64,000 nt of DNA, taken from the NCBI GenBank assembly GCA_963758495.1, contig CAVWVI010000004.1:1024001-1088000 (forward strand), read 5' to 3'. Below the pieces are notes generated by a model. That model saw only the letters and a list, made by a program, of their open reading frames with translations, was not told where the DNA came from and did not search any database. Within the stretch, counting starts at the first letter, position 1. Every line of letters starts with the position of its first letter. Origin of the DNA: Oligoflexia bacterium (lineage in GTDB: Bacteria > Bdellovibrionota > UBA1018). The position numbers were made by a program, and so were the translations under genes. Below, piece after piece: positions 56,430 to 62,875 of this stretch.

Positions 56430-57401
56430 TTAACCTCTCACCATCTCCAGTATGGCATTTCGAATTCCATTCGCACTGATTCCATAGTGCTCATAAAGAT
56501 CCTCAGGATAACCTACTATTGCCCATTGATCTTGAATTCCTAATCTACGAAATGGCGTTTTTAATCCTTCCTCAGCCAAAACCTCTGCAACTGCTGACCC
56601 TAAACCACCGATAATTGAATGCTCTTCCACTGTAATAATTCCACCCGTCTCTTTTGCCGCCGCGATAATGACGTTTCTATCTAAGGGTTTAATGGTGTGC
56701 ATATCCACTAACCGCACTCCGATTTTTTCATCTAATTGCAAAAATTCCGCAGCTTCTTTACCCCCTTCAACACCCACCCCACAAGCGATGACGGTCACGT
56801 CTTTTCCTTCATGAAGGATATTTGCTTTCCCTATTTTAAATTCAAACTGGTCATTCTCATAAGCCGGAAACTCAAATCCTCTTCCCAAGCGAATATAAGC
56901 GGGGCCTTTAAAGTCAACGAGTGCTCTCACCACTTGTGCTGTCTCAAAACTATCTGCCGGCACAAGGACAGTCATGTTTGGAAAAGTTCGCATAATAGCG
57001 ATATCCTCTAAACAATGATGTGTTGTCCCTGCTTGACCAAAAGAAAGTCCCGAATGAGTTGCCATGATCTTCACGTTAGTTTCCTGATAACAAATATCGG
57101 TTCGAACTTGCTCACAAGCTCTCATTGCAGCAAAAGCACCAAAAGTAGCAACAAAGGGATGCTTACCCCCCAATGACATTCCAGCCGCAACTGTCATGAG
57201 TGTTTGTTCCATGATACCAAAATTAAAATAACGATCAGGATAAGTCTGAACAAATTCTTTCATTTTAGTGGATTTCACAAGATCAGCAGTCAAAAAAACA
57301 ATCTCAGGTCTTGTTTGAGCAAGTTGAGTCAGCACTTTGCCATAAATCTCAGCTTGAGTCAGTTCATCCAGGGTATCCACATTCCAAGTGAGTCCTTCCA
57401 T
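56430..57401 (-). CDS. Transketolase-family C-terminal subunit (Pyr + C domain), atypical acceptor site
   Basis: LTADLVKST, NFGIMEQ, RACEQVR, ATHSGLSFGQAGTTHH, AYIRLGR, TIKPLD, TVEEHSIIGGLGSAVAE. Confidence 0.92.
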   Translation of the reverse strand: MEGLTWNVDTLDELTQAEIYGKVLTQLAQTRPEIVFLTADLVKSTKMKEFVQTYPDRYFNFGIMEQTLMTVAAGMSLGGKHPFVATFGAFAAMRACEQVRTDICYQETNVKIMATHSGLSFGQAGTTHHCLEDIAIMRTFPNMTVLVPADSFETAQVVRALVDFKGPAYIRLGRGFEFPAYENDQFEFKIGKANILHEGKDVTVIACGVGVEGGKEAAEFLQLDEKIGVRLVDMHTIKPLDRNVIIAAAKETGGIITVEEHSIIGGLGSAVAEVLAEEGLKTPFRRLGIQDQWAIVGYPEDLYEHYGISANGIRNAILEMVRG

Positions 57402-57403
57402 AC

Positions 57404-58297
57404 TTAACTCCTCTTTAGCTTCCCTAACTGTTGATAAGCTCGGATTGTACTTTCATAATTCTGATCAAGATCAGCGAGGGCCTTTTTTTCTAACTCTGTA
57501 TCCAAACCCCCATAATGCCAAGTCACAGAGTTCTCCATCCAAGGAATTCCCTTTCCTTTGATGGTATTCATCAAAATAGCTGTGGGCTTACCTGCCTGAG
57601 GGTCTGGCAGTGTATAGAGACTTTCTAATATCTCAGTCATCTGATGCCCATCTATTTCCGTGACCTTCCAACCAAAAGCTTCCAATTTTGCTCGTAAAGG
57701 TGAAAGCTCCATAATCTCCGAAATGGGGCCGTCCTGACTCATCTTATTATAATCAATAAGAGCTACTAAATTTCCAACTTTGTGATGACTAGCCGCTAAA
57801 AAAGCTTCCCAGTTACTTCCTTCACATAGTTCTCCATCACTCATGAGAGTAAAAACTCTCTCCATACGTAGATCCATTTTTTTCGCCAGTGCGATACCCA
57901 AGGAGAGACCTAAACCATGCCCTAAGGAGCCGGTACTGGCTTCAACACCAACGATTTTTTTATGATCTGGATGAATTCCAAATGGGGACCCTGTTTGGTT
58001 GAAGGTTTCCATTTCTTCGATGGGAAAGAACCCTCGATCGCCCAGTACTAAACAATATCCAACTCCCGCATGTCCCTTAGAAAGAATAAAGACATCCCTG
58101 TCTGGTTTTTTAGGATTTTTCGGGTCAATATTTAAATAATGATAATAAAGCGCCACTACCATTTCCATCATGGAGAAACTACCACCTATATGAGCGCCTC
58201 CAATTTTCCCGGTCAGTTGAATTAACTTCCGCCTGAGTTCGTAAGACTTATATTCGAGCCGAGTAATAAGGTCCGGAGTAACAGATTTTTTGTTCAT
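57404..58297 (-). CDS. Transketolase-family N-terminal subunit (ThDP-binding)
   Basis: HIGGSFS, RDVFILSKGHA, STGSLGHGL, SDGELCEGSNWEA...DYN, TIKGKG. Confidence 0.92.
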   Translation of the reverse strand: MNKKSVTPDLITRLEYKSYELRRKLIQLTGKIGGAHIGGSFSMMEMVVALYYHYLNIDPKNPKKPDRDVFILSKGHAGVGYCLVLGDRGFFPIEEMETFNQTGSPFGIHPDHKKIVGVEASTGSLGHGLGLSLGIALAKKMDLRMERVFTLMSDGELCEGSNWEAFLAASHHKVGNLVALIDYNKMSQDGPISEIMELSPLRAKLEAFGWKVTEIDGHQMTEILESLYTLPDPQAGKPTAILMNTIKGKGIPWMENSVTWHYGGLDTELEKKALADLDQNYESTIRAYQQLGKLKRS

Positions 58298-58725
58298 CGA
58301 ATGACCAGATGCCCCATTCCTAATCTTTCTAAAATGACAGGATAAATCCGAAAGGAGGGACGAATAATAGGAATTAACTGCAAAGCCTTAGTAATGCTTC
58401 CTTTGGCTGAAACTTGCCTCTTAGCGAGGGCAGCAATCACATTTTCTTTTCCTTGCCAAAAGCGATTAGAAAAATCCGCTGATTGTTTAAAGGTAACATC
58501 TGGAACTAATAGAGTCTCACCCCACGTGATCTTGGCCGAAACATCTGCATCACTTATTGAATTTTTTAGGTCGATAGTAATTTGAGCATCTGGGTCAGTA
58601 TATTGAAATTGAACGATCATCTTGGCACGATCCAATTTTGGGCCAATGATTGGATGACTCAATACTTCTTTGATGAATGAATTAAATACGCTTTCGAGCT
58701 CTTTTGAATCTTTAAATAACCCCAT
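58294..58725 (-). CDS. SCP2 sterol/lipid-binding domain protein B
   Basis: IVQFQYTDPDAQITID...PDVTFKQSAD...FWQGKENVIAALAKRQVSAKGSITKALQL; ATG 58725 with AAAAGGA RBS. Confidence 0.8.
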   Translation of the reverse strand: MGLFKDSKELESVFNSFIKEVLSHPIIGPKLDRAKMIVQFQYTDPDAQITIDLKNSISDADVSAKITWGETLLVPDVTFKQSADFSNRFWQGKENVIAALAKRQVSAKGSITKALQLIPIIRPSFRIYPVILERLGMGHLVIR

Positions 58726-58746
58726 GTTTGATGTCCTTTTTATTGT

Positions 58747-58844
58747 AAGTAGTTCCTTTAGGGCTGTTGACAAGCACTGCAAGGAGTCCTGTTGCGCCGT
58801 AAAGATTTGGATTCCCGGCGCAACAGGACTCCTTACAGTGCTTA
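58747..58844. repeat. ~100-bp palindromic dispersed repeat, copy 2
   Basis: aagtagttccttta...aagcactgcaaggagtcctgttgcgccg...cggcgcaacaggactccttacagtgctta. Confidence 0.9.
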
Positions 58845-58848
58845 TGAT

Positions 58849-59205
58849 TTATTCGGGCCAAATGACTGCAGAAATCGCATCCAAGCGCATAATATCTTCC
58901 TGACTTCCCTTAACTTGCAGCTCGCCCGATAAATATTTTTGAGTTGGATTTAAATCGCCCCAAAACATGTCGCAGAAAATTTCACTCGTAGAAGAAATAA
59001 TAATATCAGCTACTTCAGCTTTTCCAATATGAGCTTCGATAATTTCACCTTCCACGACCCTCATTATAAAATCCTGTTGAGTATCATTTGCATGAAACTG
59101 TACTACCTTGGACCAATCTCGATTCATTTTTCGCAATCGCATATTTCCATTAGAAAGTTTCGTATATTCATTCAATGCTTCCATTACTTCATTTTGATCA
59201 GCCAT
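58849..59205 (-). CDS. SCP2 sterol/lipid-binding domain protein A
   Basis: VVQFH...MRVVEGEI...ADIIISSTSEIFCDMFWGDLNPTQKYLSGELQVKGS..DIMRL; ATG 59205 overlaps the aminotransferase stop. Confidence 0.85.
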   Translation of the reverse strand: MADQNEVMEALNEYTKLSNGNMRLRKMNRDWSKVVQFHANDTQQDFIMRVVEGEIIEAHIGKAEVADIIISSTSEIFCDMFWGDLNPTQKYLSGELQVKGSQEDIMRLDAISAVIWPE

Positions 59206-60466
59206 GGGTAATACCTTTCTCAATTGTACTCATGCTCATTTCCAGAGCGTTCAAAATAAACTCTACATCAAGCGGTTGAATGACTAACGTTGGCATAATT
59301 CTCATCACACTAGAATCATTTCCAGAAAAAACTGCGATCACTCCATTTTTAGAAAGCTCAAAACTCATCCTAGGTCCAAGACTCTCGTTTGAATATTGAA
59401 GCCCCATCATCAGTCCCTTTCGACGATATTCTTTTAGAATCTGAGGGAATTTCATTCTCAACTTTTGAAATCCACTTTCAAAAAGGGTCCCCATTTGAAC
59501 AGCATGTTCCCAGAGACGATGGTCTTCAATATACCGAATGACTTCTAACGCTACCGCGCAACCTAAATCTGCTCCTCCAAAAGTTGAAAAATGAATAAAT
59601 GGATTTGTAAAAATGAAATCTTGATATTCTTCCTTATAAACTGCTGCTGTAATGGGATAAATTCCTCCTCCAAGACTCTTACCGACTGTCATGATATCTG
59701 GAATCACTCCATAGTTTTCCATAGCGAACATTTTTCCTGTTCGTCCCCAGCCAGTTTGAATTTCATCGGCAATGAGCAACACATTTTTTTGATCACAAAG
59801 CTTCCGAACCCCTGGAAAATAAGCGTCGGGTGGAATAATAATGCCCCCTTCCCCAAGGATGGGTTCTAAAATAACACAAGCAGTGTGATCATCGATAGCT
59901 TGCGCCATTGCATCCAGATCACCAAACGGCACTCTTTGAAATTCTGGCATTAAGGGTCGAAATGGTTTTTGATAAGCATCTCGTCCAATACCCGAGAGAG
60001 CAAACCCTGTATGCCCATGGTAGCCTTTTTCAGCCGATATTACCTTGGTTTTCATAGTGTAGCCACGAGCAAGTTTAATTGCAAAATCATTCACCTCTCC
60101 CCCACCACACCCAAAAGTCACACAGCTTAATTGTTTTCCGGGTGAAATAGAGGCGAGTTTTTTTGCTAACTCCACTTTTAATTCTGAAAAGAATAAAAAT
60201 CCACCTACATCATAGTGCTCTAGCGCATTCTTTAATGCTTGTATCACCTGTGGATTGCGTCGCCCAACATTAAAGCTCCCTGCGCCCGTCATGCAATCCA
60301 AATATTTTTTTCCAGAAATATCCCAAACGTAAGCACCTTCACGACGATCTTCAATTAAATCAAGACCGGCCGATTTTAAAATACGAACTCGGGAGGGATT
60401 AATATGCTTTGCGAATTCTTTAAGAACACGTTCTCTATTTTCAGAAGATGAATTTTTAGTCGTCAC
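59198..60466 (-). CDS. Class III PLP-dependent aminotransferase (putrescine/acetylornithine aminotransferase-like)
   Basis: GKKYLDC, GYHGHT, VILEPILGEGG, LIADEIQTGWGRTG, PDIMTVGKSLGGG, HFSTFGG. Confidence 0.93.
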   Translation of the reverse strand: MTTKNSSSENRERVLKEFAKHINPSRVRILKSAGLDLIEDRREGAYVWDISGKKYLDCMTGAGSFNVGRRNPQVIQALKNALEHYDVGGFLFFSELKVELAKKLASISPGKQLSCVTFGCGGGEVNDFAIKLARGYTMKTKVISAEKGYHGHTGFALSGIGRDAYQKPFRPLMPEFQRVPFGDLDAMAQAIDDHTACVILEPILGEGGIIIPPDAYFPGVRKLCDQKNVLLIADEIQTGWGRTGKMFAMENYGVIPDIMTVGKSLGGGIYPITAAVYKEEYQDFIFTNPFIHFSTFGGADLGCAVALEVIRYIEDHRLWEHAVQMGTLFESGFQKLRMKFPQILKEYRRKGLMMGLQYSNESLGPRMSFELSKNGVIAVFSGNDSSVMRIMPTLVIQPLDVEFILNALEMSMSTIEKGITHG

Positions 60467-60532: not shown

Positions 60533-61126
60533 TTAAGATAGCCTAAATGCCGCAACTGCTCCAAACACACCGCTTCGAATCATGGAGACTGCAATTGCAG
60601 CAAGGAGAAGCGCGGCAATTTTAGAAACAATGACAGTTCCATCTTTTCCAATAAGTCGAGTGACTTTTTCAGAATTTTTAAAAACTATCCATGCGAGAAA
60701 ATAATTTAAAAGCAATGCTGCGATTGTTACCCAATATCCGAAGCTATTAACTTGAAAAACTAGAGTTGTTATCACCGCCGGTCCCGTAATGAGAGGAACT
60801 GCAAGTGGCACAATCCCTGTAGAACCTGATGGCCGATTCATAGCTTCTGGGCCGCCCACGAGATCAGCAAGTGAAACTAAAAGCAAAACAAGCCCACCAG
60901 CAATTTTAAAATCAAAAAGAGTAATACTTAAATAATGAAAGAGTCCTTCTCCCACAAAAAGAAAAACTAGCGCTACTCCTAGCGCAACTAACATTGAAGT
61001 GTTTACCGTTGAAGCCTTCTTCGATCGACTCAAACCATGGGTCATGTTGATATACAGTGGCAAATTACCAATGATATCCAAGGCAACAAAAATCCCAATA
61101 AACGATAAACCGAAATTTTGCAGCAT
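60533..61126 (-). CDS. MarC family membrane protein
   Basis: FVALDIIGNLP, FKIAGGLVL, IVPLAVPLITGPA, LLAAIAVSMI. Confidence 0.9.
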   Translation of the reverse strand: MLQNFGLSFIGIFVALDIIGNLPLYINMTHGLSRSKKASTVNTSMLVALGVALVFLFVGEGLFHYLSITLFDFKIAGGLVLLLVSLADLVGGPEAMNRPSGSTGIVPLAVPLITGPAVITTLVFQVNSFGYWVTIAALLLNYFLAWIVFKNSEKVTRLIGKDGTVIVSKIAALLLAAIAVSMIRSGVFGAVAAFRLS

Positions 61127-61819: not shown

Positions 61820-62875
61820 ATGCTTCAATTTCTTACAGAAGCCAAAAATAATTTGACCAAAACCGATCTGAAAAAACAGAAACATCCTTTCACAACAAAT
61901 TTTGATGGTTTGGGTGCTTGGCTGAGTTCAATCGAAGACTCTGGGGAATTTATTGGAATTCGATTTGGTCGAATCAAATCAACACAAAATGAACCGGAAT
62001 GGTTTTTCTTACCTCATAGCCATTTTGATGGAATTGGAGGATTTGCTCATCTCCTAAGAAATCGCGGTTATCCCCATTTGCTCCAGTTACCTCAAATTAA
62101 ATTTAAAAAAAGACCTTCCTCCTGTGACCTCATTCAGCATAGCTTGCACTACTGCATATCTCAGTTCAAACGCACTGCCACCGCTCGCTTAAAAAAGGAA
62201 ACTCCAATCCATCCCCAAAAAAGTCTATCCTCTCTTCCTGCTCAATCGGTTGCGTGGAAAACTTACAATCGCGCCACTACTCAATCACTTCTTTCAAAAG
62301 CTCGCGCGAATGGAGTCACTCTAAACTCCTGGCTTCTTACCGCACTGGATCGTGGCATTCGTCATAGTTTGGACCATCCACACGGACCTGTTTCCTGGTT
62401 AATTCCAGTAAATATGCGGGGAGGGATTCAATTGCCAATGGATACTGACAACCATGCTTCACTTGTAGATATCATAATTTCTCCCTTTGAACCTGCAGCT
62501 GGAATCCACCGACAAATTCACCATAAACTGCATGACTCCAAACATTGGCTATTTTGGCATTTTATTCAAAAAACTGCAGCACTCGGCGAACGAACCCGAC
62601 AAGCTATTCTTCGAAAAGCACAGTCTCACTCCAAAAGAGAATGGCTAGGTTCATTTTCAAACTTGGGTGCTTGGAATTTACTACCTATAGACGGGGGAGC
62701 CCAAACAAATGAGGATTGGTTATTCTGCCCTCCCGTTGCTAAAAACCTTCCACTAGGAGCAGGCTGTGTCAGCTTCAACGGAAAACTTTCTCTCACCCTT
62801 CAAATCCACCCTGATTACGCTTCGAATCCGAAAACTGCGGAGTCCTTACTCAATCATTGGATGAATGAGTTATAA
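61820..62875 (+). CDS. CoA-dependent acyltransferase / condensation-fold protein
   Basis: HxxxDG motif (PHSHFDGIGG), KARANGVTLNS, LIPVNMRG, SFSNLG, SFNGKLSLTL. Confidence 0.72.
   Translation: MLQFLTEAKNNLTKTDLKKQKHPFTTNFDGLGAWLSSIEDSGEFIGIRFGRIKSTQNEPEWFFLPHSHFDGIGGFAHLLRNRGYPHLLQLPQIKFKKRPSSCDLIQHSLHYCISQFKRTATARLKKETPIHPQKSLSSLPAQSVAWKTYNRATTQSLLSKARANGVTLNSWLLTALDRGIRHSLDHPHGPVSWLIPVNMRGGIQLPMDTDNHASLVDIIISPFEPAAGIHRQIHHKLHDSKHWLFWHFIQKTAALGERTRQAILRKAQSHSKREWLGSFSNLGAWNLLPIDGGAQTNEDWLFCPPVAKNLPLGAGCVSFNGKLSLTLQIHPDYASNPKTAESLLNHWMNEL

Follow-up and report, generated by a model that had tools for sequence, protein, structure and literature searches.

UbiJ, an accessory protein with an SCP2 domain, keeps hydrophobic intermediates available to soluble enzymes. 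In the PigD/PigE system of the prodigiosin MAP pathway, the class-III transaminase PigE acts after a thiamine diphosphate (ThDP) enzyme, and PigD is no transketolase. An engineered transketolase-transaminase cascade also exists. AniP and AniQ of the anisomycin system are described as a natural, conserved pair that combines a transketolase-like ThDP enzyme acting on non-phosphorylated substrates with an aminotransferase (PMC11387542). PtTamH, another class-III transaminase, from tambjamine synthesis, is reported to convert C7–C14 fatty aldehydes, and its closest structures are given as YgjG, PigE, and ArgD (PMC9594044). For FumI of Sphingopyxis sp. MTA144, an aminopentol aminotransferase of class III, deamination of a sphinganine-like 2-amino-3-hydroxy lipid has been described (PMC3136697). 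These are the closest described systems, together with the two-gene transketolase of Carboxydothermus hydrogenoformans (PDB 6yak/6yaj; PMC7661550) and the E. coli putrescine aminotransferase PatA, or YgjG (4uox; PMC4244111), to a cassette of five genes at positions 56430–60466 of the stretch analyzed here. The stretch, called the window below, is 64,000 nucleotides of contig CAVWVI010000004.1 (positions 1,024,001 to 1,088,000) from the Oligoflexia bacterium assembly GCA_963758495.1. The cassette encodes an aminotransferase (AT), two SCP2-fold proteins (SCP2-A and SCP2-B), and the two subunits of a split transketolase (TK-N and TK-C). We find that it joins two widespread modules, AT with SCP2-A and SCP2-B with the split transketolase.

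An open reading frame (ORF) check and Pfam confirm the five minus-strand ORFs that a first-pass annotation of the window had called in this interval. AT (59198..60466) is a 422-aa class-III, PatA-like aminotransferase with a GTG start (Aminotran_3, E 1e-88). Its partner SCP2-A (58849..59205 from the ATG) has 118 aa, and SCP2-B (58294..58725 from the ATG), which is tied to the ThDP enzyme, has 143 aa. Both are above the PF02036 gathering score of 21.3 bits, SCP2-A with 31.7 and SCP2-B with 25.2 bits. TK-N (57404..58297) is the 297-aa N-terminal, PP-domain subunit of the transketolase (Transketolase_N, E 7e-39), and TK-C (56430..57401) is the 323-aa C-terminal subunit that carries the Pyr and TKC domains (Transket_pyr and Transketolase_C). 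The AT stop and the SCP2-A ATG overlap by 8 bp as read off the sequence, the SCP2-B stop and the TK-N ATG overlap by 4 bp (ATGA), and TK-N is spaced 2 nt from TK-C. The overlapping junctions indicate translational coupling. The tight coupling that had been proposed for the whole row holds at these three junctions but not between SCP2-A and SCP2-B, which lie 123 nt apart in the window genome. The G+C content of the five-gene block is ~0.40, similar to its surroundings. No public sequencing run was listed as holding the cassette, nor was any RNA run.

The transketolase shares its two-gene organization with the C. hydrogenoformans enzyme, which is the best solved match to both subunits (TK-N to 6yak_A, E 7e-69; TK-C to 6yaj, E 4e-89), and the cassette enzyme is expected to share the alpha2-beta2 architecture of that enzyme. 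TK-N and TK-C score 243 and 264 bits against NF004559, whose cut-off of 488 is set for the whole chain and lies beyond the reach of a single half-length subunit. The subunits were aligned with E. coli TktA (K-12 record NC_000913) and with the two other transketolases of the window genome. TK-N keeps H26, H66, H100, D155, N185, and H261, and TK-C keeps S385, E411, H461, H473, and R520 (E. coli numbering). The ThDP/metal site (GDG...N), the catalytic Glu411, and His26, His66, His100, His261, and His473 are those of a canonical transketolase. The sugar-phosphate pocket is not. Of the phosphate ligands Arg358, Ser385, His461, and Arg520, the first is Ala and the other three are kept, and the hydroxyl-binding Asp469 is also Ala. 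The three retained phosphate ligands suggest that the enzyme still takes a phosphorylated compound as one of its two substrates.

Both replacements are shared well beyond the window. Ala occupies the R358 and D469 positions in all five TK-C subunits from loci that contain AT and SCP2-A, whereas both residues are canonical in the two other transketolases of the window genome. The 120 nearest TK-C clusters (best cluster representatives, at least 54% identity, from many phyla) have Ala (103) or Gly (17) and never Asp at position 469; at position 358, 111 of them have Ala and 5 have Arg. D469 is reported to hydrogen-bond sugar hydroxyls and to select the stereoisomer (PMC11387542). Mutations of R358, S385, D469, and R520 are reported to improve the use of aromatic aldehydes (PMC7661550), and a D469T lineage is described as moving stepwise from phosphorylated to non-phosphorylated polar, aliphatic, and finally aromatic aldehydes (PMC5073344). 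The C. hydrogenoformans enzyme is stated to lack D469E (PMC7661550); both 358 and 469 are Ala in the cassette enzyme. One wild-type split transketolase has been noted to carry natural equivalents of D469L and L382A (PMC13663882). Judged by these residues, the cassette enzyme belongs to a large, natural clade in which the ketol-transfer machinery appears intact and the pocket would no longer read the 2-hydroxyl. The first-pass annotation had proposed a fatty aldehyde as acceptor, and the loss of R358 and D469, positions linked in the published work to non-natural hydrophobic aldehydes (PMC7661550, PMC5073344), agrees with it.

A housekeeping role for the cassette transketolase was considered and rejected. 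The window genome (G000; 3.66 Mb, 5 contigs) contains three transketolase systems in all: the cassette enzyme, a full-length tkt (G000:C1:337217-338218, 461 bits to PF00456), and a second, canonical split transketolase (G000:C3:1125207-1126995; L097:8208-9996). Because two other transketolases are present and the cassette enzyme has an altered pocket, it is not the ordinary housekeeping enzyme.

The SCP2-A family is strongly conserved at 118–119 aa and comprises 149 clusters at E ≤0.001 from Thermodesulfobacteriota, Actinomycetota, Chloroflexota, and other phyla. When 29 sequences from across the phyla are aligned, 40 of 120 columns are invariant. AT-SCP2-A loci were collected from the best 80 of 355 metagenome stretches and 3 genome loci, which gave 71 unique loci after duplicates were removed. 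AT lies directly upstream of SCP2-A in all 69 loci with enough flank, and the two are an obligate pair. The next gene, in the 59 loci with flank on that side, is an APC permease (43), a paralogous aminotransferase termed AT2 (13), SCP2-B (2), or an MFS transporter (1), and a permease is found within 2.2 kb of the pair in 36 of 39 loci. Alanine dehydrogenase adjoins the pair in two loci (L083 and L059). Only 4 of the 71 loci also contain a split transketolase (L010, L017, L031, and L059), and another 2 contain a fused E1-type ThDP enzyme (L027 and L047). Thus, the recurring unit across phyla is AT with SCP2-A, followed by an APC permease, and not the combination of aminotransferase, SCP2, and transketolase. 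The pattern of permease and alanine dehydrogenase points to uptake and deamination rather than synthesis.

The structure model of SCP2-A has a mean predicted local distance difference test (pLDDT) score of 91.1. Foldseek matched it to AF1534, TT1886, the UbiJ SCP2 domain, alkylsulfatase C-terminal domains, and classical SCP2 proteins (E 2e-8 to 1e-5). The likeness to UbiJ (6h6o/6h6p) is one of fold, with template-modeling scores of 0.72–0.73 at 15–17% sequence identity; UbiJ serves ubiquinone synthesis, whereas SCP2-A pairs with an aminotransferase. A complex of two AT chains and SCP2-A was modeled with a score of 0.72 compared to 0.00 for the best control. This score was reached by 116 of 157 solved complexes and by 2 of 215 mismatched pairs, counts that hold only roughly here because our own alignments and two copies of one chain were used. 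Three runs had at least 92% of their contacts in common, with a partner pLDDT of at least 87. The predicted interface consists of residues 138, 283, and 286–290 of one AT copy and residues 24–33, 164, 168, 361–369, 382, 385, and 418 of the other. F290 and G382 in this interface are the equivalents of YgjG F327 and L419, and the entrance to the YgjG active site is reported to be set by F91, F327, and L419 (PMC4244111). Since two of the three entrance residues are included, SCP2-A is predicted to dock on the AT dimer as a cap over one active-site entrance. The predicted interface takes in many of the invariant SCP2-A residues, and the invariant CDMFWGD stretch, which is hydrophobic and acidic, lies mostly outside it.

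AT belongs by sequence to the group of PatA, PigE, and ArgD. These are its top PDB matches, led by PatA (4uox, E 4e-87), and they are also the closest structures of PtTamH. In NCBIfam, AT scores 358 bits against the putrescine aminotransferase family NF008570 (cut-off 612), 311 against TIGR03372 (cut-off 658), 316 against PigE, and 309 against the ArgD family, so it is not a PatA equivalog. No curated NCBIfam family scored above its cut-off for AT, AT2, the permeases, the V4R protein that was tested, or the 258-aa neighbor described below. AT and PatA share the class-III fold, the catalytic lysine (K263 in AT and K300 in PatA), and an NPF.H..TFGG loop with the entrance Phe. Neither has Arg at the carboxylate-binding position. 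In GabT, R141 at this position is described as binding the substrate carboxylate (PMC4244111); the equivalent residue is R180 in OAT, likewise an Arg in AcOAT, K183 in PatA, and H152 in AT. The His is present in seven of seven aligned AT sequences and is replaced by Val in two AT2 paralogues. AT has Ala for F91 and Gly for L419, and in its family these positions are Ala or Ser and Gly or Ala, respectively, which points to a wider entrance. AT is always paired with an SCP2-fold gene and PatA is not.

PigE and PtTamH stand in the same structural group and act on hydrophobic aldehydes, but they are biosynthetic, fused to other domains, and without an SCP2 partner. FumI (6hbs) was not among the best 60 of the 166 PDB matches of AT, and its likeness to AT is at most functional since AT belongs to the PatA/PigE/ArgD group. 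The nearest relatives of AT by sequence are thus enzymes of terminal amines and aldehydes, and its proposed role as a ketodiol aminase is not favored.

SCP2-B is tied to ThDP enzymes in a second context. The L047:1145-3685 and L027:286-2814 genes encode ~846-aa proteins that begin with an SCP2-B-like N-terminus followed by E1 alpha, Transket_pyr, and Transketolase_C domains. SCP2-B aligns end to end with these N-termini at 33–34% identity. The two fusions are E1 enzymes of the pyruvate dehydrogenase or acetoin dehydrogenase type. Each immediately precedes a row of AT, SCP2-A, AT2, and a permease, and no gene for E2 or E3 was found nearby. An SCP2-B profile run against 1.84 billion representatives gave 757 matches at E ≤0.001 and 329 at ≤1e-10. 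Pfam was applied to 16 long proteins from the best 150 matches. Seven are E1-type ThDP enzymes, five are iron-containing alcohol dehydrogenases, and four have only the SCP2 domain or none. A word search had returned no longer fused forms of SCP2-B; the profile search did recover them. The aldehyde appears to be the common substrate class of the enzymes that SCP2-B-type domains accompany. Three of the iron-containing alcohol dehydrogenases (P0157, P0188, and P0267) carry the domain at the C-terminus and may be alcohol dehydrogenases escorted by a lipid carrier.

The pairing of AT with SCP2-A, the predicted complex that outscored its controls, and the SCP2-B fusions support the earlier suggestion that the SCP2 proteins are not loose neighbors: they look like dedicated enzyme partners. 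Two further observations concern loci with a split transketolase. In L031, three tandem V4R-domain proteins (L031:11379-13503) are encoded between the APC permease and atypical TK-N and TK-C genes. A conserved 258-aa protein follows TK-C (L031:15513-16289), and it also occurs in L059. It had no match below E 0.6 among PDB sequences.

The complete cassette is rare. SCP2-A turned up in 3 of 41 relatives and 3 of 401 sampled genomes of the phylum, with the window's own genome included in each count, and related proteins carry the source label of Bdellovibrio sp. metagenome-assembled genomes. All five genes occur in identical order in one relative (G019, locus L010) and in a metagenome locus (L017). 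Partial copies are present on two short contigs (L011 and L018). In the genome G010, the contig stops within SCP2-B. The five-gene arrangement is confined to one bacterial family, which weakens the first-pass proposal. The surrounding genes help to define its limits. The window, L017, and G019 have in common a neighborhood of TatC, a peptidyl-prolyl isomerase (PPIase), a 203-aa gene, and a 213-aa gene, and in G019 the whole cassette lies in reverse orientation beyond the 213-aa gene. Two other relatives (G001 and G008) have the row TatC, PPIase, w54990, and w55783, then 1–2 kb, then MarC, with no AT, SCP2, or transketolase match at this shared backbone. The five genes are a discrete, patchily distributed accessory cassette. 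Their identical order in G019 and L017 and the inversion as a unit mean that the grouping is more than chance.

Taken together, these results lead us to favor, tentatively and at somewhat short of an even chance, a role of the cassette in the breakdown of a hydrophobic amine or amino-alcohol by deamination followed by ThDP chemistry at the bond beside the carbonyl. AT would receive the amphipathic amine from SCP2-A and deaminate it, with a 2-oxo acid as amino acceptor. The resulting hydrophobic carbonyl compound would go on to SCP2-B and the transketolase, and the transketolase would break the C–C bond beside the carbonyl. In the preferred case, a 2-keto-1,3-diol would be cut to a fatty or aryl aldehyde and a two-carbon (C2) ketol unit, and the C2 unit would go to a sugar phosphate. 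The acceptor is suggested by the three of four phosphate ligands that are kept, and the catabolic direction is preferred in view of the permeases and alanine dehydrogenase found near the AT module in other lineages. A 2-keto-1,3-diol is the preferred substrate because its cleavage gives the transketolase a sensible catabolic job and parallels the E1-type version, which would perform an acetoin-like cleavage of the 1-deoxy analogue.

Several points weigh against this breakdown scheme. We infer both the substrate and the direction of flux. The kinship of AT with PatA, PigE, and ArgD would fit an aldehyde product better than the 2-keto product that is needed, and FumI, the enzyme for 2-amino-3-hydroxy lipids, is outside the best 60 of 166 matches. 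Kinship with terminal-amine enzymes, including those of the PtTamH type, also fits equally well with an aldehyde shared by the two enzymes. APC permeases usually transport small polar amines and amino acids, which argues against a very long-chain substrate and keeps a small-amine reading alive. Neither a split transketolase nor a fused E1 is nearby in 65 of the 71 AT-SCP2-A loci, so the two modules can work apart. The five-gene cassette itself contains no permease, regulator, aldehyde dehydrogenase, or kinase. Since invariant SCP2-A residues fall in the predicted interface, their conservation is no evidence for a lipid cavity, and the calibration behind the docking score is approximate.

A broader form of the breakdown scheme is possible but doubtful. 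It holds that bacteria of many phyla have a ThDP route for sphingoid-type amino-alcohols, in which an SCP2-escorted AT would make a 2-keto-1,3-diol and an Ala358/Ala469 transketolase would convert it to a fatty aldehyde and a C2 head that enters the pentose-phosphate pool. Run in reverse, the route would yield long-chain bases without serine palmitoyltransferase (SPT), and the E1-type version would serve 1-deoxy bases. If so, the cassette enzyme would be the first example of a natural transketolase specialized for hydrophobic, non-sugar substrates, and nature would have made the same pocket changes at 358 and 469 as enzyme engineers, which would provide ready-made biocatalysts. Small SCP2-fold proteins that dock on soluble enzymes and deliver greasy substrates would represent a new kind of partnership, and the pathway that makes or breaks long-chain amines or sphingoid-type bases would itself be new. 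We know of no bacterial breakdown of sphingoid bases other than by sphingosine-1-phosphate lyase. Both modules are common among uncultured bacteria from sediments, peat, and guts, and the chemistry may therefore matter for lipid-nitrogen turnover.

The alternative that survives best, although unlikely, is that the two enzymes meet at an aldehyde. AT would interconvert a primary hydrophobic amine and the corresponding aldehyde, and the transketolase would capture the aldehyde as R-CH(OH)-CO-CH2OH or release it from such a ketol. The top AT matches PatA, PigE, and ArgD fit this scheme directly, as does the His that replaces the carboxylate-binding Arg of GabT, and the activity reported for PtTamH indicates that the structural group handles C7–C14 fatty aldehydes (PMC9594044). 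The fusion of SCP2-B-type domains to iron-containing alcohol dehydrogenases, which act on aldehydes, is in line with it. In the loci with AT, SCP2-A, and a permease, a generic aldehyde dehydrogenase would complete the pathway. The difficulty lies with the transketolase. Ligation of a ketol to the aldehyde makes little sense in breakdown, and for the opposite reaction we know of no natural pool of long-chain 1,3-dihydroxy-2-ketones from which the aldehyde could be released.

A quite unlikely alternative is that the cassette breaks down a small polar amine, for example a diamine or a compound of the ethanolamine type. In that case the SCP2-fold proteins would be structural or regulatory and bind no lipid, and the transketolase would act on a short aldehyde such as glycolaldehyde or an amino-aldehyde. 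An APC permease close to AT and SCP2-A in 36 of 39 loci and the PatA-like character of AT speak for this scheme. The invariant SCP2-A residues that are polar and fall in the predicted interface also suit a purely structural partner, and the SCP2 fold is found as a non-carrier domain in proteins such as Eis (Foldseek). Given the role described for D469 (PMC11387542), its loss makes a 2-hydroxy-aldehyde such as glycolaldehyde a less likely substrate. In SCP2-A, the invariant CDMFWGD stretch combines hydrophobic and acidic character and lies mostly outside the predicted interface, and the AT entrance is widened by small residues at the F91 and L419 positions. SCP2-B-type domains are fused to several different aldehyde-handling enzymes, and three V4R-domain proteins stand beside the transketolase genes in L031.

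Biosynthesis, as proposed in the first-pass annotation, is chemically possible, but synthesis is the less likely direction and the scheme as a whole is decidedly improbable. The transketolase would add a C2 ketol to an SCP2-held fatty aldehyde, and AT would aminate the 2-keto-1,3-diol to give a sphingoid-like 2-amino-1,3-diol without SPT. A pocket that lacks R358 and D469 is suited to a non-phosphorylated acceptor that has no 2-hydroxyl, the histidines that bind the ketol are retained, both enzymes have SCP2 partners, and the five-gene cassette has no permease. The engineered cascade cited above provides a precedent. So does the natural ThDP-enzyme/aminotransferase pair AniP and AniQ, which is described as building amino-polyol skeletons (PMC11387542). 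AniP is reported to differ in being a single 603-aa chain that has lost the histidine-rich motif and uses aromatic keto acid donors (PMC11387542), whereas the cassette enzyme keeps its histidines, and the anisomycin system has no SCP2 proteins. Elsewhere the AT module sits with importers and alanine dehydrogenase, and AT is nearest to the terminal-amine enzymes. No aldehyde-generating reductase, acyltransferase, or ceramide gene is present in the cassette or conserved beside it. Occurrence in 3 of 401 phylum genomes would also be odd for a membrane-lipid pathway.

The window genome encodes an SPT-like alpha-oxoamine synthase (G000:C3:1161438-1162448; L106:1405-2652, minus strand) whose best match is NF047600, the serine palmitoyltransferase model (488 bits, under the cut-off of 640). 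Sphingolipid synthesis may therefore follow the usual route in this organism, and the SPT-independent route that had been invoked would not be needed. The novelty claimed for the gene set stands in part. A literature search on gene clusters of a split transketolase, an SCP2 or sterol carrier protein, and an aminotransferase found no relevant paper, but ThDP-enzyme/aminotransferase pairs such as AniP/AniQ are in print.

The last alternative is that ordinary genes for a transketolase of the pentose-phosphate pathway, an aminotransferase for arginine or polyamines, and two small proteins without relation to each other lie together by chance. It gains only from the generic name that each gene alone would receive and is hardly credible, given the translationally coupled junctions, a block that is conserved and inverted as a unit with an empty site in relatives, the two other transketolases in the genome, scores short of every NCBIfam equivalog cut-off, pocket changes that are common across phyla, and the adjacency of AT and SCP2-A in 69 of 69 loci.

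Two neighboring genes were considered as pathway members and rejected. MarC (60533-61126) is present in relatives without the cassette and is not beside the cassette in L010 or L017. It is a backbone gene, since G001 and G008 keep it where the cassette is missing. The 351-aa protein encoded at 61820-62875 on the plus strand has an HSHFDG motif, which is like HHxxxDG, and matches PapA_C weakly (E 1e-3). The protein probably represents an acyltransferase of the condensation/PapA5 superfamily, but it is not conserved beside the cassette in relatives. An ORF for a 187-aa lipoprotein-like protein precedes it.

The 123-nt gap between SCP2-A and SCP2-B contains a hairpin with a stem of ~30 bp (RNA minimum free energy −61.2 kcal/mol, z −9.7). 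The hairpin is formed by a ~65-nt palindromic repeat (58784..58845, no strand) that has 73 matches on all five contigs of the window genome, ~40 of them at 86% identity or more. A specific regulatory role of the hairpin in the cassette was rejected because the repeat is dispersed with copies genome-wide. It is missing from this junction in L010 and L017, where the two genes are ~10 nt apart, which identifies it as a recent insertion in the window genome, and it looks like a repetitive extragenic palindromic (REP) or miniature inverted-repeat transposable element (MITE)-like element.

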